Positions 2 through 27,671 of a stretch of DNA of 28,981 nt are shown here, one piece after another. Both the position numbers and the translations under genes were made by a program. Source of the stretch: Burkholderiales bacterium (GTDB lineage: Bacteria; Pseudomonadota; Gammaproteobacteria; Burkholderiales; SG8-39); NCBI GenBank assembly GCA_036376975.1, contig DASUZH010000389.1:1-28981 (forward strand), in the 5' to 3' direction. Numbering within the stretch: position 1 is the stretch's first letter; each line of letters opens with the position of its first letter. The notes beneath the pieces are model-generated. The model was not told the DNA's origin, did no database searches, and saw nothing but the letters and a program-made list of their open reading frames with translations.

Positions 2-1009
2 TGGATGATGTGGAACTGGCTGATGAGCGCGCTGGCCAGCGAGGCGGCGCTGCTGCTCTACGACGGCTCGCCGTTCGTCGGCCGCGGCAAGGTGCTGTTC
101 GACTTCGCCCAGGCCGAGGGCATGACGCATTTCGGCACCTCGGCCAAGTTCATCGACGCCATCGCCAAGACCGGCGTCAAGCCGCGCGAGACGCACGACC
201 TCGGCGCGCTGCGCGCGGTGCTGTCGACCGGCTCGCCCCTCGCGCCGGAGGGGTTCGACTACGTCTACGAGAACGTCAAGGCGGACGTCTGCCTGTCCTC
301 GATCTCGGGCGGCACCGACATCGTTTCCTGCTTCGTGCTCGGCAACCCTGTCGGGCCGGTCTGGCGCGGCGAGATCCAGGCGAAAGGCCTCGGTCTGGCG
401 GTCGATGTTTTTGACGAGACAGGCTCTGCAACAAAGGGCAAAGGCGAACTGGTCTGCACCAAACCCTTCCCGGCCATGCCGCTCGGCTTCTGGAACGACG
501 CCGACGGCGCGAGGTACCACGCCGCCTATTTCGAGAAGTATCCGGGGGTGTGGCGCCATGGCGACTGGTGCGAGATCACCGAGCATGGCGGCATGGTCAT
601 CTACGGCCGCTCCGACGCGGTGCTCAACCCCGGCGGGGTGCGCATCGGCACCGCCGAGATCTACCGCCAGGTCGAGCAGCTCGACGAGGTGGTCGAGTCG
701 CTGGTGATCGGGCAGGATTGGGATTCTGACGTGAGGGTGGTGCTGTTCGTGAAGCTGCGCGAAGGCCAGTCGCTCGACGATGCGTTGGTGAACAAGATCA
801 AGAAAAAGGTGCGCGACAACACCACGCCGCGGCACGTGCCGGCCAAGATCCTGCAGGTCGCCGACATCCCGCGCACGAAGAGTGGCAAGATCGTCGAGCT
901 GGCGGTGCGCGACGTGGTGCACGGCCGCCAGCCGAAGAACCTCGAGGCGCTCGCCAACCCGGAAGCGCTGGAGCATTTCAGGAACCGCATGGAGCTGGCC
1001 GCCGCATGA
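2..1009 (+). CDS. Acetoacetate--CoA ligase (ANL adenylate-forming family), 5'-truncated by the window edge
   Basis: Frame open from base 2 (WMMWNWL..., an internal motif of this family, so the track's ATG at 5 is not the true start). Motifs [57 protein letters not shown]. Confidence 0.92.
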
Positions 1010-1650
1010 CTGGCATCCCCGCCGGGCCGTTCGCCGGGCTCGACGAGCACGCGCTGCGCGCGCTGTGCCCGGGCGGGACGGTGCGGGCGGTGGCGAAGAA
1101 CGTCATCGTGGTCAGCGCGGGCGACGCCACCGATTCGCTCTACGTCATCCTGTCGGGCCGGGTGAAGGCGTTCGTCAGCGACGAGCAGGGCAAGGAGGTG
1201 GTGGTCAACACCATCGGCGCGGGCGACTTCTTCGGCGAGCTGGTGCTCGACGGCGGCCCGCGCGCGGCCTCGATCATGACCCTCGAGGCCTGCCGCTTCT
1301 ACGTCATCTCGCAGGAGGAGGCCGAGCGCCTGCTCGCCGCCAACCCGGCCTTCGGCCGCGAGCTGATCCGCAAGCTGATCGGCAAGGTGCGCTCGCTCAC
1401 CGGCCAGGTGCGCGACCTCGCGCTGAAGGACGTCTACGGCCGGCTGGCCAAGTTCGTCGAGGAGAACGCGGTTGAGCAGGACGGGCGACGGGTGATCCCC
1501 GAGCGCCTGACCCAGGCCGAGATCGCCGCCCGCATCGGCGGCTCGCGCGAGATGGTGAGCCGCATCCTCGGCGACCTGGCCGACGGCGGCTACATCGCGG
1601 TGGAAGGCAAGCGCATTGCCCTGCTGAAGAAGCTGCCGGCGCACTGGTAG
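1006..1650 (+). CDS. Crp/Fnr-family transcriptional regulator (cNMP-binding domain + winged HTH)
   Basis: ATGA overlap with upstream stop. cNMP pocket GDFFGE...PRAAS, hinge [35 protein letters not shown] (compare CRP SRETVGRIL). Confidence 0.93.
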
Positions 1651-1659
1651 GAGCAGGAA

Positions 1660-1687
1660 TGTGCATATGGCACAGATCCTCTGTGCC
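1660..1687. promoter_or_regulatory. Two overlapping inverted repeats, candidate transcription-factor operator
   Basis: TGTGC-ATATG-GCACA (1660-1674) and GGCACAGA-TCC-TCTGTGCC (1669-1687), just downstream of the Crp gene stop. The half-site resembles CRP TGTGA but the spacer is 5 rather than 6 nt. Confidence 0.4.
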
Positions 1688-1722
1688 GCGGGGCGTCGAG
1701 AGGCGACCGGCAGCCTCCTAGA

Positions 1723-1744
1723 GTCCCTCCATACGAGGAGGGAC
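1723..1744 (+). promoter_or_regulatory. Hairpin occluding the Shine-Dalgarno of the 51-aa ORF
   Basis: GTCCCTCC (1723-1730) is the exact reverse complement of GGAGGGAC (1737-1744), with a 6-nt loop. The 3' arm contains GGAGG; the ATG is at 1749. Confidence 0.55.
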
Positions 1745-1748
1745 ACCC

Positions 1749-1904
1749 ATGAACAGACTCTGGCGGATCCTGGCGGGCGCGCTCGGTGCGGTCTACGCCC
1801 AGCCGCTCATCGACGTGATCACCGAGCGCGAGCGCATCGCGCTGGAGATCGCGCGCGTCGAGGACGAGATCGCGAAATTCAAGAACCTCCAGCCCGCCGC
1901 CTAG
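1749..1904 (+). CDS. Small hypothetical protein, 51 aa (MNRLWRILAGALGAVYAQPLIDVITERERIALEIARVEDEIAKFKNLQPAA), absent from the ORF track
   Basis: ATG preceded by GAGGAGG, G/C-ending codons like the neighbouring genes, TAG at 1902-1904. It fills the gap between the Crp gene and the DyP-P450 gene on the same strand. Confidence 0.7.
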   Translation: MNRLWRILAGALGAVYAQPLIDVITERERIALEIARVEDEIAKFKNLQPAA

Positions 1905-1973
1905 CGGTACCATTTTCCGCGCCGGCGGGATTCCGCGCCGGGTTTATCCGCATGTCCTGAACGGCAGCGCTTG

Positions 1974-1989
1974 TCACTCGGGGGAGTGA
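1974..1989 (+). promoter_or_regulatory. Inverted repeat over the RBS region of the DyP-P450 gene
   Basis: TCACTC-GGGG-GAGTGA, ending 4 nt before the ATG at 1994 and covering the GGGGAG purine run. Confidence 0.35.
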
Positions 1990-1993
1990 GGGG

Positions 1994-4900
1994 ATGGGGT
2001 CGGAGGTCACCAGCAAGCACCTGCAGGGCGTCACCGACCTGACGCTGGTCGCGGACATCAAGCCCGGCCTGGCGCCCTCGCTCGACGCCTGCACCTACGA
2101 AACCCGCCTCGCGCTGGTGATGCGCACGTTCACCGGGCTGCGCTCGTCTTCCCGCGAGTACGCGGTGATCCGCCCGTTCTCCGACACGGTGGAGCGGATC
2201 CAGGAAATCCACTCCTTCCGCCTCGCCGTCATCCCGCCGAAGGAGGGCGAGGGCGTGACGCGCAGGCTGCTCCTGTCGGTGGGCTTCGACGGCGGCTGGG
2301 AGCAGTACATCCGCCGCGTCTGGCGCGACCTCGGCCCGCTGCTCGACGTGATGTTCTGCAACACCACCGACTACAAGAGCGCCTGGGACCACAGCTTCCA
2401 GGACTACGTGGCGTGGATCCGCTCCAAGCAGCTCGACACCGGCTTTTTCTACAGCGCGACCGGGCTCTCGGTGACCGACCTGCAGTACCTCCGGCAGGTG
2501 GAAAAGCTCCATCGGGAGGGCCATGCCAACCTCGAGCTGGCGGCGGCCCAGCTCACCGCGGCCGATCCGGAGGCCGTAGCGAAGGACGCAGCCGCGCTGA
2601 ACCCGGCCGAGGCCATGCGACTCGGCCTCACCGCGCTGGGCACGCTCTACCGGCTCACCGACTTCTACCCGCCCGACCATGCGGACGGCGGCTATCTCTG
2701 GCGCGCGACGCGCCAGCTGATGAAGGAGCTCGATACGCCCGGCCTGCCCGCCCCGGTGCGTGCGGCCTATGCAACGCAGATCGACTGGTTCGAGAAGCCG
2801 CCGCCCGCGCCGGCGCCCGCCCCGCAGCCCTGGCCGAAGTTCGACCCCGCCAACGTGCAGGCCGGCATCCTCAAGGGCTACGACCAGGGCAGCGGCACCG
2901 ACCCGCGCAAGAAGGTCAACCACGGCTGCCTGCTCCTGCTGCAGATCGCCGACCCGGACGTGGCGAACGCGCACGCCTTCCTGCGCGCGCTGCAGCCGAT
3001 GATCAGCCGCCACGACGCGCCGCCGCAGGGCGAGGTCTACACCAACGTCGCGTTCACTTGCCAGGGGCTCGCCAGGCTCGGCGTGCCGGCCGCCTCGCTC
3101 GCCGCCTTTCCGAAGGAGTTCCAGGAGGGCATGGCGGATCGCGCCGACCTGCTGGGCGACTTCCGCTGCAACCATCCGCGCAACTGGGCGCTGCCGAAGC
3201 GCAACTGGCCGGCGCCGGGCGGGCGCGTCCAGCTGTCGACCGTCGACATCGTCGTGCAGCTTCGCCTGCGCGGGCGCGACCTGCAGCCCGGCGACCACGA
3301 GGTCGCCGGCAACCCGGGACACCCCCTGTACGCCGCGGTCGAGGGGCTGGACAAGCTGGCCGGCCGGCACGGCGTGCGGCTGCTGTCGGTGGAGACCATG
3401 GTGAGCTACCGCGACGCCAACCTCGATCCGGTCGGGCACCTCGATTTCGTCGACGGCATCAGCCAGCCGATGGTGCCGGGCATCGACCCGGCGCTGGACG
3501 CGGACGACGCGAAGCGCGTCAACTGGCGCGACCGCGTCGGGCTGGGCGAGATGCTGTGCGGCCACCCGAACGACGGCGGGGACGCGCCGTTGAGCGGGCC
3601 CGCCGCCGAGTACCTGAGCGACGGCACTTTCCTCGTGGTGCGCAAGCTGCGCATCGATACCGACGCGCTGGACGAGTTCTACGAAGAGCAGGAGACGAAG
3701 CACGGCATCCCGCGCCGCGTGCTGGAAGGCAAGATGATGGGCCGTGCCGGCGACGGCACGGCGCTCGCCGCGCCCACCAAGGGCAACGACTTCAACTACA
3801 GCAGCGCGGCCAACCAGAGCGGCGCGCTGTGCCCGTTCCAGGCCCACGCGCGGCGCGCCAACCCGCGCACCGACCCGGCCGGGGATCCTTCCAAGCGGGT
3901 GCCGCGGATCATGCGCCGCGGCATGTCCTACGGGCCCAAAGGGGCCGGCGCCGCCGACTGCGGCCTGATGTTCCTGGCGTACAACGCGAGCATCGCCGAG
4001 CAGTTCGAGGTGATCCAGCGCTGGATCGCCGGCGGCAACAGCACCAACGTATTCGCCGGCGACGCCGACCCGTTCCTCGGCGTGCCGCAGCTCGGCGATC
4101 CGCGCACCTTCCGCTTCCACGACGGCGCCGCGGTGACGCGGGTCGACCTCGACGCCGGCAGCCCGCATCCCGGCGCGCGGCCGTTCTCGCAGGTCGAGTG
4201 GGGCGCCTACCTGTTCGTGCCTTCGCTCGCTGCGCTCGGCAAGCTGGCCGCGGCGGCGCCGCAGACCCCGTCGGACGCGGTGGCGAGGGGCGAGCAGATC
4301 ATCAAGACGCTGCTCTACCTCGAGTCGCTGCCGGGCGCCGACATCCCGCGCATCCGCGACGCGTGGAAGGCCTACCTGGAGGACCTCGGCTCGAAGGAAA
4401 AGGGCTACAACAGCGCGATCTGGGCCGCCCTGCGCGAGAAGTTCGGCGGCGCGCTGTGGACGCCGTACGGCGTGCTGGTGGCGAACCCCAAGATGGTCGA
4501 CTTCGTGTTCACCAACAAGGACCTCTATTCGGTCGAGGGGCACGCCGGCGGCGCCGAGCCGGTCGAGGGCTACCTGCACCGCTCGCGCGACACCATCGGC
4601 GAGATCTACCTCGGGCTGGACGACACGGGGCCGGGCTCCGAATACCAGCGCAGGTCGAAGGAGACCAACGAGGAGCTGATGCGGCTCACCGGGGAGGAAG
4701 CGTTCGTCCTCGCCCGCGACGCCACCGTGAAGCACCTCAAAGGACTGCTCGCGCTGAACGGCGGCAAGGAAGTCACGCTCGACCTGCGCACGATGCTGTC
4801 GGATCCGGTGCTGGCCGCGGTGTGCCGCGCCTGGTTCGACCTGCCGGACGGCAAGTACGTGGTGGACGGCGGCTGGAACTGGCAGTCGGGTCACACGCCG

Positions 4901-5596
4901 TGCTGCCCCGGCGACTTCACTTCGCCTTCGCGCTACATCTTCCAGCCCAACCCGGCGAAGCAGGTGGGCGACTACGCGAAGGCCCAGGGACGGGCGCTGC
5001 ACGAGGCGGTCCGGCAGTTCGCCGGCGCGATGAAGGGCAAGGTGAGCGGCAAGCTCTCCAAGGCGCTGTTCCGCATCATCCCGGACGACGACGACCGGCT
5101 GGCGAGCACCTTGATCGGCGTGATGATGGGCTTCCTGCCGACCGTAGACGGAAACTTCCGCAGCACGCTGCTGCAATGGCTGGCGGACGGCACCCTCTGG
5201 CGCCTGCAGGCGGACCTGCGCGCGGCGCCCGGCCCGATCGACTTCGCCCGCGCGCAGTCGGTGCTGCTCGGCGCGCTCAAGGCGGGCATGCAGAAGCGCC
5301 CGGTGCCCGACATCGTCTGGCGCACGGCGAAGGTGAAGCACGACCTCGGGCCGGTCGCGGTGCATCCGGGCGACAAGCTGGCGATCGGCATCGTCTCGTC
5401 GACGCAGGACAAGCTTGCCGCCGGCAAGCTCGACGTCTACCCCGTGTTCGGCGGCAAGCGTGGGCCTGACGGCCCGACGCACGCCTGCCCGGCGTACGAG
5501 GCGGGCATGGGCGTGCTGCTCGGGATGGTCAGCGGCCTGCTGGAGGCGGGAACGCTCCGCCCGACGCCGGTAACGCTGACGGTCCTATTGTCTTAA
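1994..5596 (+). CDS. 1200-aa fusion: N-terminal domain of unknown function + Pro-rich linker + DyP-type heme peroxidase + C-terminal cytochrome P450-like domain
   Basis: DyP motifs NVQAGIL (aa 287), FVDGISQP (Asp487), CPFQAHARRANPR (His618), RIMRRGMSYG (Arg641), GLMFLAY, QFEVIQRW, GAYLFVPS (aa 737). P450-like RPVPDIVWRTA and FGGKRGPDGPTHACPAY (Cys1165). No signal peptide seen. Confidence 0.85.
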   Translation: MGSEVTSKHLQGVTDLTLVADIKPGLAPSLDACTYETRLALVMRTFTGLRSSSREYAVIRPFSDTVERIQEIHSFRLAVIPPKEGEGVTRRLLLSVGFDGGWEQYIRRVWRDLGPLLDVMFCNTTDYKSAWDHSFQDYVAWIRSKQLDTGFFYSATGLSVTDLQYLRQVEKLHREGHANLELAAAQLTAADPEAVAKDAAALNPAEAMRLGLTALGTLYRLTDFYPPDHADGGYLWRATRQLMKELDTPGLPAPVRAAYATQIDWFEKPPPAPAPAPQPWPKFDPANVQAGILKGYDQGSGTDPRKKVNHGCLLLLQIADPDVANAHAFLRALQPMISRHDAPPQGEVYTNVAFTCQGLARLGVPAASLAAFPKEFQEGMADRADLLGDFRCNHPRNWALPKRNWPAPGGRVQLSTVDIVVQLRLRGRDLQPGDHEVAGNPGHPLYAAVEGLDKLAGRHGVRLLSVETMVSYRDANLDPVGHLDFVDGISQPMVPGIDPALDADDAKRVNWRDRVGLGEMLCGHPNDGGDAPLSGPAAEYLSDGTFLVVRKLRIDTDALDEFYEEQETKHGIPRRVLEGKMMGRAGDGTALAAPTKGNDFNYSSAANQSGALCPFQAHARRANPRTDPAGDPSKRVPRIMRRGMSYGPKGAGAADCGLMFLAYNASIAEQFEVIQRWIAGGNSTNVFAGDADPFLGVPQLGDPRTFRFHDGAAVTRVDLDAGSPHPGARPFSQVEWGAYLFVPSLAALGKLAAAAPQTPSDAVARGEQIIKTLLYLESLPGADIPRIRDAWKAYLEDLGSKEKGYNSAIWAALREKFGGALWTPYGVLVANPKMVDFVFTNKDLYSVEGHAGGAEPVEGYLHRSRDTIGEIYLGLDDTGPGSEYQRRSKETNEELMRLTGEEAFVLARDATVKHLKGLLALNGGKEVTLDLRTMLSDPVLAAVCRAWFDLPDGKYVVDGGWNWQSGHTPCCPGDFTSPSRYIFQPNPAKQVGDYAKAQGRALHEAVRQFAGAMKGKVSGKLSKALFRIIPDDDDRLASTLIGVMMGFLPTVDGNFRSTLLQWLADGTLWRLQADLRAAPGPIDFARAQSVLLGALKAGMQKRPVPDIVWRTAKVKHDLGPVAVHPGDKLAIGIVSSTQDKLAAGKLDVYPVFGGKRGPDGPTHACPAYEAGMGVLLGMVSGLLEAGTLRPTPVTLTVLLS

Positions 5597-8500
5597 GCGC
5601 TCCGCCTGCGCCAAGTGCCACGCCATGTCCATCGCTTCAAACCCGGCCATCGCCCGCTCGAGTAGGGGAAGCGCCGCCGCACGGTTGCCGCGCGCGAGCT
5701 CGATCTCGGCGGCGCACAGCTCGGTCGCCGCGGTTTCGTGGCGCGCGCCCCTGTCGCGCGCCGCCTGCATCGCCAGCGCCAGGTAGCGTTCGGGCGGCCG
5801 GCGGGCGTGCCCGCCCGCGGCGGCGCGGGCGAGCGCGCGGCAGGCCATGGCCTCGCCCAGGCGGTCGTCCCGCCTCGCGCGCTTCAGGGCGCGCGAGGCA
5901 TGGGCGCGCGCCTCGCCGAAGCGGCCGGCGGCGACCATGCCCTCCGCCAGCCAGCCGTAATTCAACGAGATGAACAGGCGCTTGTCACGCGCCTCCAGCC
6001 ATTGGGTCGCGGCGTCGATCGTGCCCAGCGCCTGCGGGTCGCCGCGCAGGATCCAGTTGGCGTAGGCGCCGAGCGCGCGGCTCATGCCATATACATAGAG
6101 GCTCTTGACCCGCTCGGCGATGTGCTCGGCCTCGGCGGCGGACTGGCGCGCGTCCTCCCAGCGGCCCTGCCAGAGGCAGACCGCGCTGCGCCAGCACAGC
6201 ACCGAGCCCTCGACCACCTTGTTGCCGCCGCGCAGCGCGTCGAGCGCCTCGTCGAAGCAGGCGTGCGCCTCGGCGAAGCTGCCGCGGTCGCCGAGCACCG
6301 ATGCCTTGCAGGCGAGCGAGTAGGCCGAGCCGATCGCCGGCCCGGTGCGGTGCGCGCGCCGCACGGCGATCGCGGCGTCGAGCTGCGCCAGCGCCGGCGC
6401 GTAGTCGCCGGCCGCGGCGCGCGCCTGGCCGAGCGTGGCGGTGATCTGCACGCCGAGCGCCTCGTCGCCGGCGCGCCGCGCGGCGGCGAGCGCGCGCTCG
6501 CAGTGACCGATCGCGAGGCGGGACTCGCCCAGCCCGTAGTTGAGGTAGCCGAGCCAGTACTCGGCCCCGGCCACGCCGGCCGCATCGTCATGCCCGGCGG
6601 CGAACTCGGCGGCGCGCTGCAGCACGTCGAGCTGGTCCTTGGCCGGGTCGAACACGCAGGCCATGCCGAAGCGCTGCACGATCTGGCTGCGCCGGCGCCG
6701 GTTCGCTTCGGTCGGCTCGAGCAGGTCGAGCGCGGCGAGCGCCGCGCGGTATTGCGCCTGCGCGCGGTCGAGCGCGGCGGCGGCCATCGCCTTGTCGCCC
6801 GCCAGCTCGGCGTAGCGCGCCGCCTCGGCGTGCCGCCCGCCGGCGCCGTAGTGGTAGGCGAGCGCCTCGAACGGCTCGGCTTCGCTGCCGGAGCCGTGGC
6901 GCAGCAGCGATTCGGCGATGCGCAGGTGCATCGCGCGCCGCTGGTGCAGGCCGACCGAGTCGTAGATCACGTCGCGCGTGATGCCGTGCTTGAAGCGCAG
7001 CCAGCCGGGCGCCTCGCCGGGGAACAGGAAATCCTGCTCGGCGAGGCCCTGCACCAGCGGGTCGTGCTCGCCGCGCCCGGTCATGCCTTCGAGCAGCCAG
7101 GCCGGCACCACGTTGCCGATCACCGCGGCGGCGCGCAGCAGCTCGGCCTGCGCGGCGGGCAGCCGCGCGACGCGCGACTCGATCAGGCCGTTCAGCCACG
7201 CCGCGCCGCCGCGCGCGCGGCCGAAGCGGTGCTCGGCGCTGTCGTGCGCCGCCGAATGGCACAGCTCCTCGATGAACAGCGGGTTGCCGCCCGAGTAGCG
7301 GTGGATCTCGGCGACGACGAACGGGTCCCTGCTCGGCAGCAGCGCGCTCACCGTCTCCGCCGCCTCGCTTTCGCTGAACGGCGCGAGGTCGAGCACGCGC
7401 GCGTCGCTCATCTCGGCGTCGCCGGCGGCGATGCCGCGGGTGGCGAGCAGCACCATCAGGCGGCAGCGCTCCAGCCGGCGGATCGCGCCCAGCACCTGGC
7501 GCGTGGCGTCGTCCGCCCATTGCCAGTCGTCGATGAACAGCACGATGGCGCGGCTGGCGGCGAGGGCGGCGAACAGGTCGCGCAGCGCGGCGGCGGTGTT
7601 GTCGGGCGTGGCGCGCGCGCCGTCCGGCTCGCCGGAGAGCAGCGACAGGGCGCGCAGCAGCTCGCCGCGGTGGCGCTCGAGCGCCGGGTCGATGCCGCGC
7701 AGCGTGCGGCCGAGCGCCTCGGCGGCGAGAACCGCCGACATGCCGCGCTCCAGGCGGCAGAGCGAGCGCAGCATCTGCAGGAAGGGCTGCAGCGGCTCGG
7801 CGTTGAGGTAGCTCTCGCAATGGCCGCGGTGCACCTGGAACTTGCCCGCGGCGCGGCCGAGGAACTCGTCGGCGAGCCGCGTCTTGCCGAGGCCGGGGCC
7901 GGCGGAAAGCGCGACGTAGGCCGGTTCGCCGGCGGCCGCGGCCTGCAGCGTCTCCTCGAGCGCGCGCATCTCGGCCTTGCGGTCGACCAGCGGCACCAGG
8001 CCGCGCCGCGCGCGCGCCTCGAAGCGGGTGGTGGCCGGCGCACGGCCGAGGATGCGGTACACCCCGATCGGCTCGGCGGCGCCCTTCACCTCCAGGTGCT
8101 GCCGTCCACCGGTCTGGAAGAAGTGGCTTTCGGCGCCGAGCGTCGCCTCGCTCACCAGGATCTCGTCCTTCTCGGCGGCGTCGGACAGCCGCGCGGCGAT
8201 GTTCGGCGCGTTGCCGAGCAGCTCGAAGCGGCCGCGCACCAGGTCGCCTTCGTCGAGCAGCACCAGGCCGGCGTGGATCCCGCTGTGCAGGCCGAGCCGC
8301 GCCCCCGGCAGCGGGCGCTCGAAGCGGAACTCGCGCACCACGGCGTGCAGCTGGAGCGCGGTCTCGGTCGCCCGGCGGCCGTCATTCTCGCCCGCGTCGG
8401 GGTAGCCGAAGATGGCGAGCAGGCCGTCGCCCTGGATCCGCACGATGGTCCCGCCGTGCTTCGGGATCACTTCCTGATAGGCGCGCCGCAGCCGGCCGAG

Positions 8501-8605
8501 CAGGTCGGCGTAGTCTTCGGCCTCCATGGCGTCGGCCAGACGCGTCGAATCCGACAGATCGGAGAAGAGGATCGTGAGGTGGCGCCGGCGCATCCTGCGG
8601 CACAT
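5585..8605 (-). CDS. Class III adenylate/guanylate cyclase - STAND/AAA ATPase - TPR-like repeat protein
   Basis: Cyclase motifs TILFSDLSDST (D16), RIQGDG (D60), GIHAG, LGNAPNIAARL (N135/R139). Walker A AGPGLGKT, Walker B LFIDDWQWAD, GGNPLFIEEL, FKHGITRDVIY, then Ala-rich TPR-like helices. Start is 8605 or 8593. Confidence 0.9.
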   Translation of the reverse strand: MCRRMRRRHLTILFSDLSDSTRLADAMEAEDYADLLGRLRRAYQEVIPKHGGTIVRIQGDGLLAIFGYPDAGENDGRRATETALQLHAVVREFRFERPLPGARLGLHSGIHAGLVLLDEGDLVRGRFELLGNAPNIAARLSDAAEKDEILVSEATLGAESHFFQTGGRQHLEVKGAAEPIGVYRILGRAPATTRFEARARRGLVPLVDRKAEMRALEETLQAAAAGEPAYVALSAGPGLGKTRLADEFLGRAAGKFQVHRGHCESYLNAEPLQPFLQMLRSLCRLERGMSAVLAAEALGRTLRGIDPALERHRGELLRALSLLSGEPDGARATPDNTAAALRDLFAALAASRAIVLFIDDWQWADDATRQVLGAIRRLERCRLMVLLATRGIAAGDAEMSDARVLDLAPFSESEAAETVSALLPSRDPFVVAEIHRYSGGNPLFIEELCHSAAHDSAEHRFGRARGGAAWLNGLIESRVARLPAAQAELLRAAAVIGNVVPAWLLEGMTGRGEHDPLVQGLAEQDFLFPGEAPGWLRFKHGITRDVIYDSVGLHQRRAMHLRIAESLLRHGSGSEAEPFEALAYHYGAGGRHAEAARYAELAGDKAMAAAALDRAQAQYRAALAALDLLEPTEANRRRRSQIVQRFGMACVFDPAKDQLDVLQRAAEFAAGHDDAAGVAGAEYWLGYLNYGLGESRLAIGHCERALAAARRAGDEALGVQITATLGQARAAAGDYAPALAQLDAAIAVRRAHRTGPAIGSAYSLACKASVLGDRGSFAEAHACFDEALDALRGGNKVVEGSVLCWRSAVCLWQGRWEDARQSAAEAEHIAERVKSLYVYGMSRALGAYANWILRGDPQALGTIDAATQWLEARDKRLFISLNYGWLAEGMVAAGRFGEARAHASRALKRARRDDRLGEAMACRALARAAAGGHARRPPERYLALAMQAARDRGARHETAATELCAAEIELARGNRAAALPLLERAMAGFEAMDMAWHLAQAERLRQ

Positions 8606-8613
8606 TTTCCCAT

Positions 8614-8642
8614 TTGTGGTGGCGGAATAATGCGGGTAGACT
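8614..8642 (+). promoter_or_regulatory. Putative sigma70 promoter for the pyrG operon
   Basis: TTGTGG (8614-8619) - 17 nt - TAGACT (8637-8642), 26 nt upstream of the pyrG ATG. Confidence 0.5.
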
Positions 8643-15929: not shown

Positions 15930-16352
15930 ATGACCGCGGCGCGCGCCCTGCTCGTGGTGCTGATCGCCGCGGGCTGCGCGCAGGCGCCGAGTCGGCCCGC
16001 CGGCGAAGGCCTGGTCGGCCCAGTTTGGCAGCTGGTGCGATTCACGGGCGGCGACGACCGGGTCCTCACGCCGGTGGATCGCAGGAGCTACACCCTGCAG
16101 TTCGGCGCCGACGGCCGCGTCAGCGCGCGCATCGACTGCAACCGCGGCAGCGGCACCTACAAGACCACCGGCACGAGCGGGCTCGAGTTCGGGCAGATGG
16201 CCATCACGCGCGCGATGTGCCCGCCGGGGTCGATGCACGATCACGTCGTCAGGCAGCTGCCCCACATCAAGTCGTTTGTCATCAAGGACGGACGCCTTTA
16301 TCTTTCCCTCATGGCGGATGGCGGGACCTACGAGTTTGAGCCGGCGCGCTAA
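15930..16352 (+). CDS. META (HslJ-like) domain lipoprotein
   Basis: Lipobox IAAG-C. WQLVRF, YTLQF, DCNRGSGTY, ITRAMCP (META Cys pair). Confidence 0.85.
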   Translation: MTAARALLVVLIAAGCAQAPSRPAGEGLVGPVWQLVRFTGGDDRVLTPVDRRSYTLQFGADGRVSARIDCNRGSGTYKTTGTSGLEFGQMAITRAMCPPGSMHDHVVRQLPHIKSFVIKDGRLYLSLMADGGTYEFEPAR

Positions 16353-19188
16353 GGCCGCGATCGTCCTCGCCGTCCTGCTCGTCGCGTACGGGGCGGCCGG
16401 CAGTTACTTCGTGCCGCGCATCGCCCGCACGCAGGCCGAGGCTTTCGTCGCCGAGACCTTGCAGCGCCGGATCAGCATAGGCGAGATCCGCTTCAACCCG
16501 TTCACCCTGGCGATCGAGATCTCCGACCTCAAGCTGACGGAGGCCGACGGCGCGCCGCTGGCGGCGTTCCGCAGCCTGTACGTCAACGCCGAGCTCGCGT
16601 CGCTGTGGCGGCGCGGCGTGGTGCTGAAGGAGGTCGCGCTCGCCGCGCCCGACGTCGAGCTGATCATCGCCCCCGACGGCAGCCTCAACCTGGCGCACCT
16701 CGCGCCGCCTGCGCCGCCGCAACCGGCCGAGAAGAAGGACGACGCGCCGCTGCGCGTGCACATCGGCAGCTTGTCGGTCACCGAGGGGCGCATCGGCTTC
16801 CAGGACCGCTCGCTCGCGCAGCCGTTCAGCGCCGCCTTCACGCCGATCCGCTTCTCGCTCGCCGACTTCCGCACCGACCTCGGCCATCGCACCACCCACA
16901 GCTTCAGCGCCACCAGCCGGATCGGCGCCCGCTTCGACTGGTCGGGCGGATTCACCGTGCGGCCGTTCGGCGCCGGCGGCACCTTCAGCGTCACCGACCT
17001 GCGCCTTGCGGCTCTCAACGAGTACGTTGAGGGAAAGCTGCCGGTCGAGCTCGTTTCGGGCAACGCGCAGCTGCGCGGCGAGTACCGCTTCGACCTGCAG
17101 CCGCTCGCGCTCGAAGTGGCGCTGCCGCTGATCGGCGTGCGCGACCTGGTGCTCGCCGAGCGCGGCGTGTCCGGGGCGCCGCCGATCACCGTGCCGGAGA
17201 TCGACGCCGAGCAACTCAGGTTTTCGCTCACGCAGCGCGACGTCGGGCTGAGGCGGTTGACCCTGCGCGGCGCGCGCGTCGAGGTTGCCCGCGACGCCGA
17301 CGGCAGCCTGAACCTCGCGCGCCTGTTTACACCGACGGCGCAGCAGACGCCGCCGGCGGCTCCCGCCGCACCGGTCGGCGCCCCCGCCGGCGGGGCGGCC
17401 AAGCCCTGGACCGTGCATGTCGACGCGGCAACCCTCGAAGGCGCGACCGTGCTGACAGAGGACCGCACGCTGTCGCCCGCCGCCCGGGTCAGCCATTCAC
17501 CGGTGGACGTCGCCATCAGCGGCTGGAGCACCGCGCCGGGCTCGCGCATGAAGTTCGAGGCGAAGCACGGGATCGAAAAGCACGGACAGCTCACCGCCGC
17601 CGGCGACCTGCGCCTGGAGCCTTTCGACCTCAACGTCGCCGTCGACCTGCAGCGGTTTCCGCTTCCCGTGCTGCAGCCATACCTCTCGCAGGCGACCGCG
17701 CTCACGCTGCGCTCCGGCGACCTGAGCGTGAAGGGCAGCTATGCGCTCGCCGCGCCGCGGCCGGGGGCATCGCTCGCGTCGAAGGCGTCGGGGGAAATGA
17801 GGGTCGACAACCTGCTCGCCACCGACGACGTCGTGAAGGAGGACCTCCTCAAGTGGCGCTCGCTGGTTTTCGGCGGCATCCGGTTCGAGCAGGGCCCGGA
17901 CCGGCTGCGCATCGACCGCATCGTGGCGCAGGAGCCCTACGCGCGGATCGTGATCGCGCAGAACGGCACCACCAACATCGGCCGCGTCCTGGAGCGGCGC
18001 GCCGGCGCCGGCGCGCCGGCGAAAGCGGGGACCGGGAAGCCCGCCGGCGAGCGCATGCCGATCACGATCCGCACGGTGCAGATGGCCGGCGGCTCGGCGC
18101 ACTTCGCCGACTATTCGATCCAGCCCTCGTTCGCCACCGGCATCGTCGACCTGAACGGCCAGGTGAGCGGGCTGTCGTCGGCGCCGCAATCGCGCGCCAA
18201 GGTCGCGCTGAGCGGGAAAGTGGACGAATTCTCCCCGGTAAGCGTGTCGGGCGAAGTCAACCTGCTCTCGACGGCCACCTACTCCGACCTCGCACTGAGC
18301 TTCCGCAACATCGAGCTCACCAGCTTCAACCCGTATTCGGGCAAGTTCGCCGGCTACAACATCGCCAAGGGCAAGCTTTCGACGGAGATGAAGTACCGCG
18401 TCGACAACCGCAAGCTCGACGCCAAGCACCACATCGTGATCGACAACCTCGAGTTCGGCGAGGCGACCGATTCCAAGGACGCGGCGCCGATCCCGATCAA
18501 GTTCGGCGTGGCGCTGCTGAAGGACAAGAACGGCATCATCGACCTCGACCTGCCGATCGGCGGCACGCTCGACGACCCCGAGTTCCGCCTGGCGCCGATC
18601 ATCTGGAAGGCCCTCGTCAACCTGCTGAGCAAGCTGGTCACCGCGCCGTTCAGGGCCCTGGCCGGCGGCAGCGACGACCTCGCGTTCGTCGACTTCGAGC
18701 CGGCTTCGCCCGCGCTGCGCGAGCCCGACCGCGGCAAGCTCGGCACCCTGTCGAAGGCGCTGGTGGAGCGCCCGCAGCTGCGGCTCAACGTGCCGTTCAC
18801 GCTCGCGCCGGCCGCCGACTCCAGCGCAGCCGCCGCGCAGGCGCTCAACGCGCTGGTGCCGCGCGCTCCCGGACCGCTCGACGAGGCCGCCAAGCGCAAG
18901 CGCATCCAGGCGCTGGAGGCGGCCTATCGTGCCCAGCTGAAGGCCGAGCCGAAGATCGTGGAGGAGAACCTGGACGTCCGCATCGAGCGGCTGCAGGCCG
19001 CGCTGCTCGAGCACCTCAAGCCGCCGCCCGCGGCGCTCGAGGAGCTCGCGCGCCAGCGCGCCCAGGCGGTGCGCGCCGCGCTCCTGGCGAACAAGGAACT
19101 GAACCCCGAGAGGGTATTCATGGTGTCGCAGCCGGGCGAGCCCGCGCTGGCGGACGGCCGGGTGCGCATGGAGATGAAGCTCGAGTGA
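16318..19188 (+). CDS. DUF748-repeat (AsmA-like) inner-membrane-anchored protein with OmpA-like C-terminal segment
   Basis: N-terminal TM, GEIRFNPFTL, repeated GSLNLAxL, NPYSGKFAGYNIAKGKL, ALLKDKNGIIDLDLPIGGTLDDPEF, LARQRAQAVRAAL. Start is 16318 (ATG) or 16336 (TTG). Confidence 0.85.
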   Translation: MAGPTSLSRRAKAAIVLAVLLVAYGAAGSYFVPRIARTQAEAFVAETLQRRISIGEIRFNPFTLAIEISDLKLTEADGAPLAAFRSLYVNAELASLWRRGVVLKEVALAAPDVELIIAPDGSLNLAHLAPPAPPQPAEKKDDAPLRVHIGSLSVTEGRIGFQDRSLAQPFSAAFTPIRFSLADFRTDLGHRTTHSFSATSRIGARFDWSGGFTVRPFGAGGTFSVTDLRLAALNEYVEGKLPVELVSGNAQLRGEYRFDLQPLALEVALPLIGVRDLVLAERGVSGAPPITVPEIDAEQLRFSLTQRDVGLRRLTLRGARVEVARDADGSLNLARLFTPTAQQTPPAAPAAPVGAPAGGAAKPWTVHVDAATLEGATVLTEDRTLSPAARVSHSPVDVAISGWSTAPGSRMKFEAKHGIEKHGQLTAAGDLRLEPFDLNVAVDLQRFPLPVLQPYLSQATALTLRSGDLSVKGSYALAAPRPGASLASKASGEMRVDNLLATDDVVKEDLLKWRSLVFGGIRFEQGPDRLRIDRIVAQEPYARIVIAQNGTTNIGRVLERRAGAGAPAKAGTGKPAGERMPITIRTVQMAGGSAHFADYSIQPSFATGIVDLNGQVSGLSSAPQSRAKVALSGKVDEFSPVSVSGEVNLLSTATYSDLALSFRNIELTSFNPYSGKFAGYNIAKGKLSTEMKYRVDNRKLDAKHHIVIDNLEFGEATDSKDAAPIPIKFGVALLKDKNGIIDLDLPIGGTLDDPEFRLAPIIWKALVNLLSKLVTAPFRALAGGSDDLAFVDFEPASPALREPDRGKLGTLSKALVERPQLRLNVPFTLAPAADSSAAAAQALNALVPRAPGPLDEAAKRKRIQALEAAYRAQLKAEPKIVEENLDVRIERLQAALLEHLKPPPAALEELARQRAQAVRAALLANKELNPERVFMVSQPGEPALADGRVRMEMKLE

Positions 19189-25322: not shown

Positions 25323-26168
25323 ATGAAGCTTTCCAAGGAGCAGCTCGAACGCTTCGATCGCGATGGGTATCTCTTTTTTCCTTCTTTGTTCACCAAGGAG
25401 GAAATCCGGGTTCTGACCGACGAAGTCCCCGGCCTGTATTCCCAGCGCCGCGCGGAGAACGTGCGCGAGAAGACCGGCGACGTGGTGCGCACCAACTTCG
25501 CCGCGCACATGTACAGCTACCCCTTCGCCAAGCTGGCGCGTCACCCGCGCATGGTCGAGCCGATCAAGTCGCTGTTCGGCGAAGACGTCTACATGCACCA
25601 GTTCAAGATCAACGGCAAGCAGGCCTTCGACGGCGACGTCTGGCAGTGGCACCAGGACTACGGCACCTGGATGAACGACGACCAGATGCCGGCGGCGCGC
25701 GCCATGAACGTGGCGATCTTCCTCGACGAGGTGAACGAGTTCAACGGCCCGCTGATGTTCATCCCCGGCAGCCACAAGCAGGGCGTGCTCGACGCGTCCC
25801 ACGACCAGAGCACGACCAGTTATCCGCTCTGGGTTATTTCGAATGAAAACATAAAGAAAATGGTGGAGAAGGGCGGCATCGTCGCGCCCAAGGGGCCGCC
25901 CGGCTCGATGATCCTGTTCCACGGCTGCCTGGTGCACGCCTCGACCTCGAACCTGTCGCCTTGGAACCGCGTCAGCGTCTACCTCTCGCTTTGCGCCGTC
26001 TCCAACCACATCCGCCGCTTCAAGCGCCCGGGCTACATCGCGCACCGCGACTTCACCCCGATCCAGTGCCTGCCGGACGACTGCCTGCTGAAGCACTACG
26101 ACGTGCCGCTGCCGTGGAAAGACGGCACACCGGCCGAAGAGCTGCAGGGCGCGCTCCGGGCGGCGTAG
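25323..26168 (+). CDS. PhyH/EctD-like Fe(II)/2-oxoglutarate dioxygenase (ectoine/proline hydroxylase-like)
   Basis: RBS GAGGA. FDRDGY, YMHQFKIN, WQWHQDYGTW (HxD), NGPLMFIPGSH, LVHAS (distal His), NLSPWNR. Confidence 0.88.
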   Translation: MKLSKEQLERFDRDGYLFFPSLFTKEEIRVLTDEVPGLYSQRRAENVREKTGDVVRTNFAAHMYSYPFAKLARHPRMVEPIKSLFGEDVYMHQFKINGKQAFDGDVWQWHQDYGTWMNDDQMPAARAMNVAIFLDEVNEFNGPLMFIPGSHKQGVLDASHDQSTTSYPLWVISNENIKKMVEKGGIVAPKGPPGSMILFHGCLVHASTSNLSPWNRVSVYLSLCAVSNHIRRFKRPGYIAHRDFTPIQCLPDDCLLKHYDVPLPWKDGTPAEELQGALRAA

Positions 26169-26169
26169 C

Positions 26170-26295
26170 GTGACCGGCGACCCAGAGGACGATGTCGAGC
26201 AAGACGATCCGCCGGAAGATGACGAGGACGAGAAGATTGACGACGACGAAGGCGAAGAAGTCTTCCCGATAGACGACCCCGAGCGCGACGCATGA
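26170..26295 (+). CDS. Hyper-acidic 41-aa microprotein (MTGDPEDDVEQDDPPEDDEDEKIDDDEGEEVFPIDDPERDA), absent from the ORF track
   Basis: GTG 1 nt after the upstream TAG; its TGA overlaps the downstream ATG (ATGA 26292-26295). 23 of 41 residues are D/E. Confidence 0.6.
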   Translation: MTGDPEDDVEQDDPPEDDEDEKIDDDEGEEVFPIDDPERDA

Positions 26296-27671
26296 ACCTT
26301 TACTCCAAGCTCCAGCAGCGCAAAGACAATCCGCTGCGCATCGGCGTGATCGGTGCCGGCAAGTTCGGCGCGATGTACATCGCGCAGGTGCCGAAGACTC
26401 CCGGCGTGCACTTGGTCGGCATTGCTGATCTTTCGCCCGCTAACGCGAAGGAGAACCTGAGCCGTACCGGGTGGCCTCCGGACGCTTATGGAGCTGCCTC
26501 GCTGGATGAGGCGCTGAAGCAGAAGAGAACCCATGTGTCGGATGACTGGGAGAAGCTGGTAGCGCATCCGGCGATCGACATCATCATCGAGTCGACCGGC
26601 AATCCGCCGGCGGCGGTGGAGCACGCGCTGGCGGCGTTCAAGAACCGAAAGCACGTGGTGATGGTGACGGTGGAGGCCGACGCGTTTTGCGGGCCGGTGC
26701 TGGCGCAGAAGGCGAAAGAGGCGGGTGTCATCTACAGCCTGGCGTACGGCGACCAGCCGGCGCTGATCTGCGACCTGGTCGACTGGGCGAGGGCCGCGGG
26801 CTTTCCGGTGGTCGCGGCGGGCCGCGGGCACAAGTGGCAGGCGCACTACGCGCAGTCGACGCCGGAGACGGTCTGGGGCTACTACGGCCTCACGCCGGAG
26901 CAGGCGAAGGTCGGCGGCCTCAACCCGAAGATGTTCAATTCGTTCCTCGACGGCTCGAAGCCGGCGATCGAGACCAGCGCGGTGTGCAACGCCACCGGCC
27001 TCACGCCGGCGCCGGAAGGGTTGCTCTATCCGGCCGGCGCGATCGACGAGATTCCCGCGCTGATGCGGCCGCGGAGCGAAGGCGGCGTGTTGCATCACAA
27101 GGGCCAGGTCGAAGTTGTTTCTTCTTTGACAGAAGAAGGAAAACCGATCTCCTATGACATCCGCTTCGGCGTGTTCGTCTCGTTCGAGGCGGAGACCGAC
27201 TACATCCAGCGCTGCTTCCAGGAATACGGCGTGAAGACGGATCCGTCGGGCCGCTACGCCTGCCTCTACAAGCGCTGGCACATGATCGGTCTAGAGGTCG
27301 GAATTTCCGTGGCTTCGGTGGGCCTGCGCAACGAGGCGACAGGAGTGGCGACGGGGTGGCGCGCCGACGCGGTCGCGACTGCGAAAAAGAACTTGAAGGC
27401 GGGAGAAATCCTCGATGGCGAGGGTGGCTACACAGTCGTCGGGCGGCTGATGCCGGCAGAGGATTCCTTGAAGCAGAACTGCCTGCCGCTGGGCCTCGCC
27501 CACGGCTGGAAGCTGCTCAAGCCCGTTTCCGCCGGGCAGCCTTTGCGCTGGAGCGACGTGGCTTTCGACGCGAACCAGACGGCCGTGCGGCTGCGGCGCG
27601 AGATGGAGTCCGCAGCTTCTCGAGGAAGCGGTACATCTCGGTATGATCCGCGCCCTGCGGCAGCTGCTTGA
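26292..27671 (+). CDS. NAD(P)-dependent oxidoreductase (homoserine-dehydrogenase-like N-terminus) with C-terminal SAF domain
   Basis: Rossmann IGVIGAGKFG, DIIIESTG, KHVVMVTVEAD, YGDQP, FLDGSKPAIE. SAF segment AKKNLKAGEILDGEGGY...LPLGLA. Confidence 0.82.
   Translation: MNLYSKLQQRKDNPLRIGVIGAGKFGAMYIAQVPKTPGVHLVGIADLSPANAKENLSRTGWPPDAYGAASLDEALKQKRTHVSDDWEKLVAHPAIDIIIESTGNPPAAVEHALAAFKNRKHVVMVTVEADAFCGPVLAQKAKEAGVIYSLAYGDQPALICDLVDWARAAGFPVVAAGRGHKWQAHYAQSTPETVWGYYGLTPEQAKVGGLNPKMFNSFLDGSKPAIETSAVCNATGLTPAPEGLLYPAGAIDEIPALMRPRSEGGVLHHKGQVEVVSSLTEEGKPISYDIRFGVFVSFEAETDYIQRCFQEYGVKTDPSGRYACLYKRWHMIGLEVGISVASVGLRNEATGVATGWRADAVATAKKNLKAGEILDGEGGYTVVGRLMPAEDSLKQNCLPLGLAHGWKLLKPVSAGQPLRWSDVAFDANQTAVRLRREMESAASRGSGTSRYDPRPAAAA

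Follow-up and report, generated by a model that had tools for sequence, protein, structure and literature searches.

Within a 28,981-nucleotide stretch of DNA from a Burkholderiales bacterium (lineage SG8-39; assembly GCA_036376975.1, contig DASUZH010000389.1), the whole of which we call the window, we describe a horizontally acquired four-gene cassette built around a predicted two-heme enzyme and a signaling protein. The enzyme is a fusion of a DyP-type peroxidase with a very divergent cytochrome P450 (DyP-P450); its convergently encoded partner joins a class III nucleotidyl cyclase to a STAND-type NTPase and a C-terminal tetratricopeptide (TPR) sensor region. These two genes form a near-obligate, co-inherited pair with a linkage far beyond chance, and in the window they are accompanied by a Crp-family regulator and a small open reading frame (ORF). 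The cassette is real, conserved and uncharacterized, and we infer for it a mechanism in which Crp would read the nucleotide made by the cyclase and control the operon of the small ORF and the enzyme gene.

A near-obligate enzyme–cyclase pair

Homologs of the enzyme fall into 93 clusters in the protein collection, and relatives occur at 341 places in a one-genome-per-species genome set, with Bradyrhizobium, Variovorax, Sphingomonas, Roseateles and Xenophilus among the carriers. Our locus survey covered the best 80 of these 341 homologous loci, drawn from several phyla. A full-length cyclase ortholog (42–64% identity) adjoins the enzyme gene in 76 of the 80, lying convergently downstream in 73 of these, and three of the four remaining loci are truncated, the contig ending no more than 300 bp from the enzyme gene. 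In the genus of the window, cyclase-STAND paralogs reach 28–33% identity only. In an unbiased sample of 250 high-quality genomes from the order, one genome alone carries the enzyme and one alone an ortholog-level cyclase; they are the same genome, where the two genes adjoin and converge, while a 32% cyclase paralog in another of the 250 had no enzyme partner. Clustering of flanking ORFs revealed no conserved neighbor beyond the enzyme–cyclase pair, Crp and a lipase, which marks the core as a mobile two-gene unit.

Individual loci show further arrangements. At L048, L050 and L080, 2.3–3.1 kb separates the enzyme gene from the cyclase gene, and one or more extra genes may be inserted there. The sole evaluable locus at which no cyclase was found after the enzyme and GDSL lipase genes is L049 (410–6513), whose contig continues for only 1.4 kb past the lipase.

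One inserted block between housekeeping genes

The cassette and its left flank are laid out as follows.

5–1009, plus strand: 3′ part of the acetoacetate-CoA ligase gene acsA, the left flank (ORF map, NCBIfam)
1006–1650, plus strand: Crp-family gene, 214 aa (ORF map, Pfam)
1749–1904, plus strand: small ORF, 51 aa (ORF map)
1994–5596, plus strand: DyP-P450 enzyme gene, 1200 aa (DyP matches in Pfam and NCBIfam)
5585–8605, minus strand: class III cyclase/AAA_16/TPR gene, 1006 aa (Pfam)
1010–8628, no strand: inserted 7.6-kb block (blastn against the same-genus loci L112, L115, L116 and L119; composition)

A first-pass annotation of this DNA had placed four genes between two housekeeping loci, with the enzyme and cyclase genes converging on a 12-bp overlap of their 3′ ends (5585–5596), and the ORF map and domain scans confirm this arrangement; the right flank consists of pyrG and kdsA, followed by eno (Pfam scan). 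In four same-genus genomes the end of acsA and pyrG lie ~40 bp apart (~250 bp in L116), so that the four genes represent one inserted block. Consistent boundaries emerged from blastn, in which homology with the same-genus loci ends at ~990–1009 (1090 for L116) and restarts at ~8622–8636, and the block has a G+C fraction of 0.69–0.76 as compared to 0.65–0.68 for its flanks. A search of 24 same-genus genomes with the enzyme as query (P0001), the four just described among them, did not recover the cassette. We conclude that the four-gene block was horizontally acquired as a single insertion.

Three long contigs from the European Nucleotide Archive (ENA) sample ERZ25039541 have the same four-gene order beside pyrG, with enzyme and cyclase genes that are fragmented, probably by sequencing frameshifts; on one of them the left flank is an acetyltransferase in place of the ligase. 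Domain scans of the window revealed no phage or integrase genes, and genes further downstream (16276–19188 and 25323–27671) are ordinary, encoding DUF748/AsmA-like, META-domain, PhyH dioxygenase and DRL-type oxidoreductase proteins.

A predicted two-heme enzyme without a redox partner

The enzyme is a cytoplasmic, three-domain, predicted two-heme protein, with an ABM-like N domain ahead of the DyP and P450 domains.

1994–2848, plus strand: N domain, residues 1–285; a ferredoxin-like ABM/Dabb-type alpha+beta module (residues 13–121) followed by a helical part (AlphaFold2 (AF2) model, mean predicted local distance difference test (pLDDT) score 87)
2849–4288, plus strand: DyP-type peroxidase domain, residues 286–765; nearest to C/D-type DyPs
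4289–5596, plus strand: divergent cytochrome P450 domain, residues 766–1200 (profile, AF2 model, fold comparison, residue conservation)

The DyP domain matches Pfam Dyp_perox_C above its cut-off (1e-9) and NCBIfam TIGR01413 at 3.9e-22, yet under that model's superfamily cut-off, and aligns with its motifs in register to DyP structures in the PDB (8re3, 2e-23; DyP2, 1e-15). Among 31 family members, the distal Asp487-G488 of the GXXDG motif is kept in 30, and both the proximal His618 and Arg641/Arg642 in all 31, a pattern that identifies the peroxidase domain, as judged from these residues, as catalytically intact.

The P450 assignment draws on other evidence, since Pfam p450 (PF00067) gave no match to the 1200-aa protein at E ≤ 0.01. 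A family profile of the C-terminal domain matches P450s in the PDB (E 3e-4), aligning its cysteine loop with the HQCIG loop of 7qan. The AF2 model of the domain (pLDDT 95.7) retrieved 1632 PDB matches at E ≤ 1e-3 in Foldseek, with all 50 matches listed being P450s, and VIA comparison with P450 structures returned a Z of 31 and a root-mean-square deviation of 2.7–3.0 Å over ~350 residues. The cysteine-ligand loop, FGG-x-R...PTHAC1165P, is longer than the canonical FxxGxxxCxG, and its F1152-G-G...H1163-A-C1165-P residues are invariant (31/31). Elsewhere the domain departs from the P450 canon: in the K-helix the position three before R1102 (25/31) is M or L instead of the E of ExxR, a reading that depends on the alignment, and in the I-helix, located by sequence pattern as G1046-F-L1048-P1049-T-V-D-G-N, Leu (27/31) and Pro (28/31) replace the expected D/E-T acid–alcohol pair.

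Peroxygenase (CYP152) and hydroperoxide-rearranging P450s likewise lack the acid–alcohol pair, and its loss here argues about the mode of action of the P450 and not about membership of the fold. Because the block also encodes neither ferredoxin nor reductase, the P450 is most likely to be peroxide- or hydroperoxide-using, and the enzyme as a whole most likely works on peroxides or hydroperoxides.

The N domain has weak fold matches (Foldseek E ~0.1; VIA Z 5–6.3 to ABM-type and mutarotase-type proteins). A role for it as a cyclic nucleoside monophosphate (cNMP) receptor was considered and rejected: an ABM/Dabb-like module and helices, with those weak matches only, are what the model contains, and no cNMP-binding fold was seen in it.

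A cyclase joined to a STAND-type module

The partner protein reads, from its N terminus, as a cyclase, a switch and a sensor.

8072–8584, minus strand: class III nucleotidyl cyclase domain (Pfam Guanylate_cyc, 2.8e-18)
7469–7990, minus strand: STAND-type P-loop NTPase, AAA_16 (Pfam AAA_16, 1.1e-19; Walker A GPGLGKT, Walker B LFIDD)
5585–6808, minus strand: C-terminal TPR/MalT-like sensor region (Pfam TPR_12, 4e-9; TPR_MalT, 1e-4)

A P-loop NTPase with both Walker motifs followed by a C-terminal repeat sensor (AAA_16, then TPR_12 and TPR_MalT) constitutes a STAND architecture of the MalT/AfsR-like type. We mapped the residues of the cyclase domain on Pseudomonas aeruginosa CyaB (3r5g) and assessed their conservation over 60 orthologs, with counts given out of 58. 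The metal-binding Asp16 and Asp60 are invariant; of the transition-state residues, Asn135 is kept in 52 of 58, and position 139, an Arg in the window's protein, is R in 33 and H in 20. The two base-specifying positions are occupied by Arg56 (R in 43 orthologs, Q in 12) and Glu128 (E in 27, D in 27), and present neither the canonical adenine pair (Lys with Asp/Thr) nor the guanine pair (Glu with Cys/Ser). Mean pairwise identity among orthologs is 41–46% in the TPR sensor and 47% in the cyclase domain, making the sensor as conserved as the catalytic part.

A Crp-family regulator recruited to the cassette

The first gene of the block encodes a Crp-family protein (Pfam cNMP_binding, PF00027, 1e-21; HTH_Crp_2, PF13545, 1e-10) that scores 102 bits against the NCBIfam CRP model, as compared to a cut-off of 266, and is no equivalog of E. 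coli CRP. Its phosphate-binding cassette is intact (G77-E78 ... R86-A-A-S89), and its recognition helix is CRP-like (R181-E182 ... R186). The start of crp and the stop of acsA overlap in the tetranucleotide ATGA (1006–1009), and gene calls on a related ENA contig have the same 4-bp overlap (9258 vs 9261); Crp may therefore be translationally coupled to the ligase gene, which serves fatty-acid/ketone-body activation.

Across the survey, a Crp homolog lies directly beside the pair in 28 of 80 loci (35%), in several classes and in three arrangements: upstream of the enzyme gene (12 loci), upstream of the cyclase gene on the same strand (11) or divergent from the cyclase gene (5). In five of five genomes tested, the pair-adjacent Crp was the best genome-wide match, and four Burkholderiales carriers without an adjacent Crp encode an equally similar Crp elsewhere in the genome. 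An unrooted tree places the Crps of Burkholderiales cassette carriers, adjacent and non-adjacent alike, in one well-supported group that excludes the housekeeping Crp of the window genome. A cassette-exclusive Crp orthogroup was nonetheless ruled out by close paralogs in genomes where the cassette was not found.

Tandem Crp genes were seen at two loci. At L021 (17796–19519), two Crp paralogs lie in tandem upstream of the cyclase gene in a Burkholderiales cassette. At L124 (G007:C110:13000–32900), where no cassette was found, two tandem paralogs that are 56% and 73% identical to the window Crp adjoin genes for a FadB-like hydroxyacyl-CoA dehydrogenase/enoyl-CoA hydratase and a Ser/Thr kinase.

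CRP-type operators ahead of the enzyme gene

We scored CRP-type boxes as TGTGA-N6-TCACA with ≤2 mismatches within 250 nt upstream of a gene. At 31 of 79 loci (39%; 11 of 79 with ≤1 mismatch) the enzyme gene has such a box, as compared to 3.4% (≤2 mismatches) and 1.0% (≤1) of 204 further intergenic regions taken from those loci, an ~11-fold enrichment; upstream of the cyclase gene boxes occur in 3 of 70 regions. Many of those ahead of the enzyme gene sit at −104 to −126 from its start codon, and they come from at least eight lineages. The enrichment supports control of the enzyme gene by nucleotide-bound Crp as a common feature of these cassettes.

The window's own upstream region has two candidate elements of a different kind.

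1660–1687, no strand: candidate operator or hairpin; 15-bp palindrome TGTGC-N5-GCACA (1660–1674) overlapping the 7-bp inverted repeat GGCACAG-N5-CTGTGCC (1669–1687)
1725–1742, plus strand: hairpin CCCTCC-N6-GGAGGG that includes the ribosome-binding site of the small ORF (three-relative alignment; −11.6 kcal/mol, z −2.8)

The arms of the 1660–1674 palindrome are unchanged in L122, the closest relative with DNA, despite differing spacer letters, and as RNA the 1660–1687 segment has an unexceptional fold (z −1.5). The hairpin with the ribosome-binding site is the sole outlier among leader RNA folds, which are otherwise unremarkable. Just 5′ of it, a TAGAGT hexamer at 1719–1724 is kept in three relatives and is a possible −10 element; scans of 1500–2100 for sigma-70 promoters and intrinsic terminators returned nothing. 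Across the window, the CRP box has fewer matches than chance would predict.

No palindrome is common to the Burkholderiales loci in which crp precedes the enzyme gene. At one of them, L074 (9738–10001, a Rhodoferax metagenome-assembled genome), the interval from crp to the enzyme gene contains a perfect 21-bp palindrome, TGACCTTTTGCCAAAAGGTCA, a candidate operator unlike CRP-type boxes; L076 carries a degenerate version of TGACCTTTTGCCAAAAGGTCA.

A clade-specific small ORF

The predicted 51-aa product is hydrophobic at its N-terminus, ends in a conserved helix motif and has no Pfam, NCBIfam or PADLOC match. The ORF recurs with 61–74% amino acid identity and in-frame indels in L122 and L123, and at 67–80% identity in six further protein clusters; on all contigs inspected its place is immediately upstream of the DyP-P450 gene, and downstream of crp wherever the contig extends far enough. 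A profile search of the 80 distant loci returned no match, which excludes the ORF as a universal cassette component; by its sequence distribution, it is confined to the clade of the window.

Lipase fusions and expression

A GDSL/SGNH hydrolase is fused to the enzyme or encoded just after it in 30 of 80 loci, and just upstream in L051, for a total of 31 of 80; metagenomic homologs of the enzyme carry patatin or GDSL domains. The fusion of two unrelated lipolytic folds to the same enzyme suggests an acyl-lipid-derived substrate and, by the logic of domain fusions, the substrate is probably of this kind.

Sediment metatranscriptome contigs match the window with 0–3 mismatches within 1772–5398, with gaps, and one 692-nt RNA-library contig (1772–2463) spans the small ORF into the enzyme gene. 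No near-exact metatranscriptome contig fell in the cyclase gene among the matches listed. This uneven coverage argues against pure DNA carry-over, and does not by itself prove a single transcript.

Mechanism and alternative explanations

The explanation we favor, to which we assign a probability of roughly 55%, is a mobile enzyme–sensor cassette in which Crp reads the cyclase nucleotide and controls the small-ORF/enzyme operon. Its invariant core would be the enzyme–sensor pair, carried in the window within a four-gene acquired cassette. The DyP-P450 enzyme would act on peroxides or hydroperoxides with an acyl-lipid-derived substrate; a ligand of the TPR-STAND region would trigger oligomerization, upon which the cyclase would make a cyclic nucleotide; and Crp, encoded at the head of the cassette, would read that nucleotide and control transcription of the small ORF and the enzyme gene.

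Several observations weigh against this mechanism. No canonical CRP box (≤3 mismatches) is present in the window's crp-to-enzyme interval (1651–1993), and 65% of cassettes have no adjacent Crp. Crp paralogs that are 73–74% identical occur in unrelated contexts in the same-genus genomes G007, in which the cassette was not found, and G045, in which no cyclase ortholog was found. The window genome encodes 12 class III cyclase and 18 cNMP-binding domains, which makes cross-talk likely and, together with the Crp paralogs outside the cassette, indicates that the system is not closed. The nucleotide product is uncertain given the non-canonical specifying residues, Arg/Gln with Glu/Asp, from which it is not assignable. 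The window's cassette has no lipase, the lipid substrate being read from domain fusions only, and DNA carry-over is possible for the RNA-library contigs.

These results refine what the first-pass annotation had proposed. Its Crp with an intact cNMP pocket and its DyP-P450 fusion both stand, the latter without a Pfam p450 match and by virtue of profile, fold and cysteine loop. Its description of the system as self-contained does not survive the host's many other cyclase and cNMP-binding domains, the two thirds of cassettes with no adjacent Crp and the close Crp paralogs elsewhere. The linkage it envisaged among four genes holds for the enzyme and cyclase genes and, at 28 of 80 loci, for Crp, but not for the small ORF beyond its own clade. 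Likewise, a single circuit of writer, reader and enzyme agrees with a co-inherited pair, a Crp recruited in 35% of loci and acquisition as one block, but not with an open system; switching of the enzyme gene by cNMP-bound Crp is backed by operators in other cassettes, but not by a canonical box in the window's promoter; and the guess of an oxylipin-like product gains indirect backing from recurrent lipase fusions, though not from a lipase in this cassette.

The primary flow might instead run from enzyme to cyclase. An oxidized small molecule made from lipid or peroxide would then be the TPR-STAND ligand, such that the cassette would be a chemical sensor that reports oxidative or lipid chemistry as a cNMP signal, with Crp control of the enzyme as secondary feedback. 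We entertain this only tentatively; it overlaps the Crp-controlled mechanism and differs from it only in the direction of primary flow. In its favor, the enzyme and cyclase genes are inherited almost 1:1 even without an adjacent Crp, and with a dozen cyclases per cell a shared ligand explains that pairing more easily than a diffusible nucleotide alone. MalT-type STAND proteins are ligand-gated, and the conservation of the TPR region here resembles that of a site that binds a single invariant ligand. The two genes are, however, convergent and not co-transcribed, and CRP boxes, enriched as they are ahead of the enzyme gene, show that at least part of the flow is from nucleotide to enzyme. A doubtful extension, which we would advance as speculation, is that the enzyme turns fatty acids released by the lipases often fused to it into an oxidized lipid, a bacterial oxylipin, that switches on the TPR-STAND cyclase, completing a relay from lipid mediator to cyclic nucleotide, possibly a non-canonical one.

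Crp and the small ORF could also be local passengers beside a pair that functions alone, with Crp a member of the host's expanded accessory Crp family whose expression goes with that of acsA and whose targets are other genes. The overlap of the crp and acsA codons in the window and on the related ENA contig, the absence of a canonical CRP box between crp and the enzyme gene, and the abundance of Crp paralogs (47–74% identical) in same-genus genomes where the cassette was not found would all fit. We nevertheless judge such passenger status improbable, as crp lies inside the inserted block, the order of crp, small ORF and enzyme gene is kept in L122 as well as in ENA contigs whose left flank differs, and Crp stands beside the pair in 35% of loci across several classes and in three arrangements, where by our estimate chance adjacency would be well under 1%.

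A role in defense or abortive infection, with the STAND-TPR cyclase sensing an invader in the manner of Avs or Pycsar and its nucleotide activating a membrane-lipid-oxidizing or lipolytic effector, strikes us as very improbable. The patchy, mobile distribution (not found in the 24 same-genus genomes searched, with flanks that vary between loci), the STAND architecture of the sensor, the match of the cyclase domain to PycC models (7.5e-16) and lipase and patatin fusions that recall CBASS effectors all speak for it. Antiviral STAND proteins are expected to have variable sensors, whereas the sensor region here is conserved and not hypervariable; the enzyme has no recognizable cNMP-binding domain and no PADLOC match, the reader is a transcription factor, and phage and integrase genes were not seen in the window. 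Since the PADLOC matches of the cyclase (PycC) and Crp (cNMP domain) are generic, we rejected membership in a known defense system.

Relation to known systems

The closest likeness in enzyme architecture comes from fungal DOX-CYP fusions (Ppo, linoleate diol synthases (LDS), DOX-AOS and DOX-EAS), two-heme polypeptides that convert free fatty acids to oxylipins (PMC13049297, PMC4420034), and of which LDS is reportedly regulated via a protein kinase A-mediated pathway (PMC4420034). Both designs place a self-sufficient C-terminal P450 without reductase behind a heme domain, which in the fungal enzymes is an N-terminal peroxidase-superfamily domain; the likeness is one of architecture only. In the bacterial enzyme, known from sequence alone, the heme domain is a DyP of the dimeric alpha+beta barrel superfamily and not a cyclooxygenase-like/animal heme peroxidase, and there is an extra ABM-like domain as well as a dedicated cyclase partner.

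The cyclase resembles mycobacterial Rv0386, Rv1358 and Rv2488c in combining an N-terminal class III cyclase with a STAND-like P-loop NTPase and helical repeats. Rv0386 is said to have Gln/Asn as non-canonical substrate-specifying residues. Unlike the Rv0386 type, which has a LuxR helix-turn-helix, the protein described here has no DNA-binding output domain, an Arg/Glu pair and a strict link to a DyP-P450 gene. The best NCBIfam match of its cyclase-AAA-TPR part is TIGR03903 (TOMM system kinase/cyclase fusion; 215 bits over profile positions 283–1078), far under the family cut-off of 705.75, and the protein described here lacks a kinase domain and has no TOMM genes in its vicinity.

Linked cyclase–receptor circuits, in which a cNMP-binding regulator encoded nearby or dedicated to the task reads what a class III cyclase makes, are represented by Sinorhizobium CyaD1/CyaD2/CyaK-Clr. 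Another is Xanthomonas XC_0250-XC_0249 (PMC3770947). Unlike the present cassette, both pairs have cyclases with other sensor domains and are not known to include a linked heme enzyme; the invariant partner of the cyclase here is the enzyme and not the receptor. Pycsar likewise pairs a class III-type cyclase with a cNMP-binding domain encoded in the same block (the PADLOC matches), although these matches are generic, the reader here is a Crp transcription factor in place of a transmembrane/TIR effector, and the cyclase has a STAND-TPR sensor. Literature searches yielded no description of a DyP-P450 fusion, of this cassette or of STAND cyclases linked to such fusions, in keeping with the first-pass view that no characterized system has this composition.

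Significance

Collectively, our results suggest an undescribed bacterial pathway that couples oxidative, probably lipid, chemistry to second-messenger signaling. The predicted two-heme, reductase-free enzyme is a candidate peroxide-driven biocatalyst, and its pairing with a cyclase-STAND protein offers an entry point to the question of which ligands bacterial STAND-type cyclases sense. A second question opened by the cassette is whether bacteria use enzymatically oxidized lipids as signals; if true, the lipid relay would be a bacterial counterpart of eicosanoid signaling, spread by horizontal transfer.

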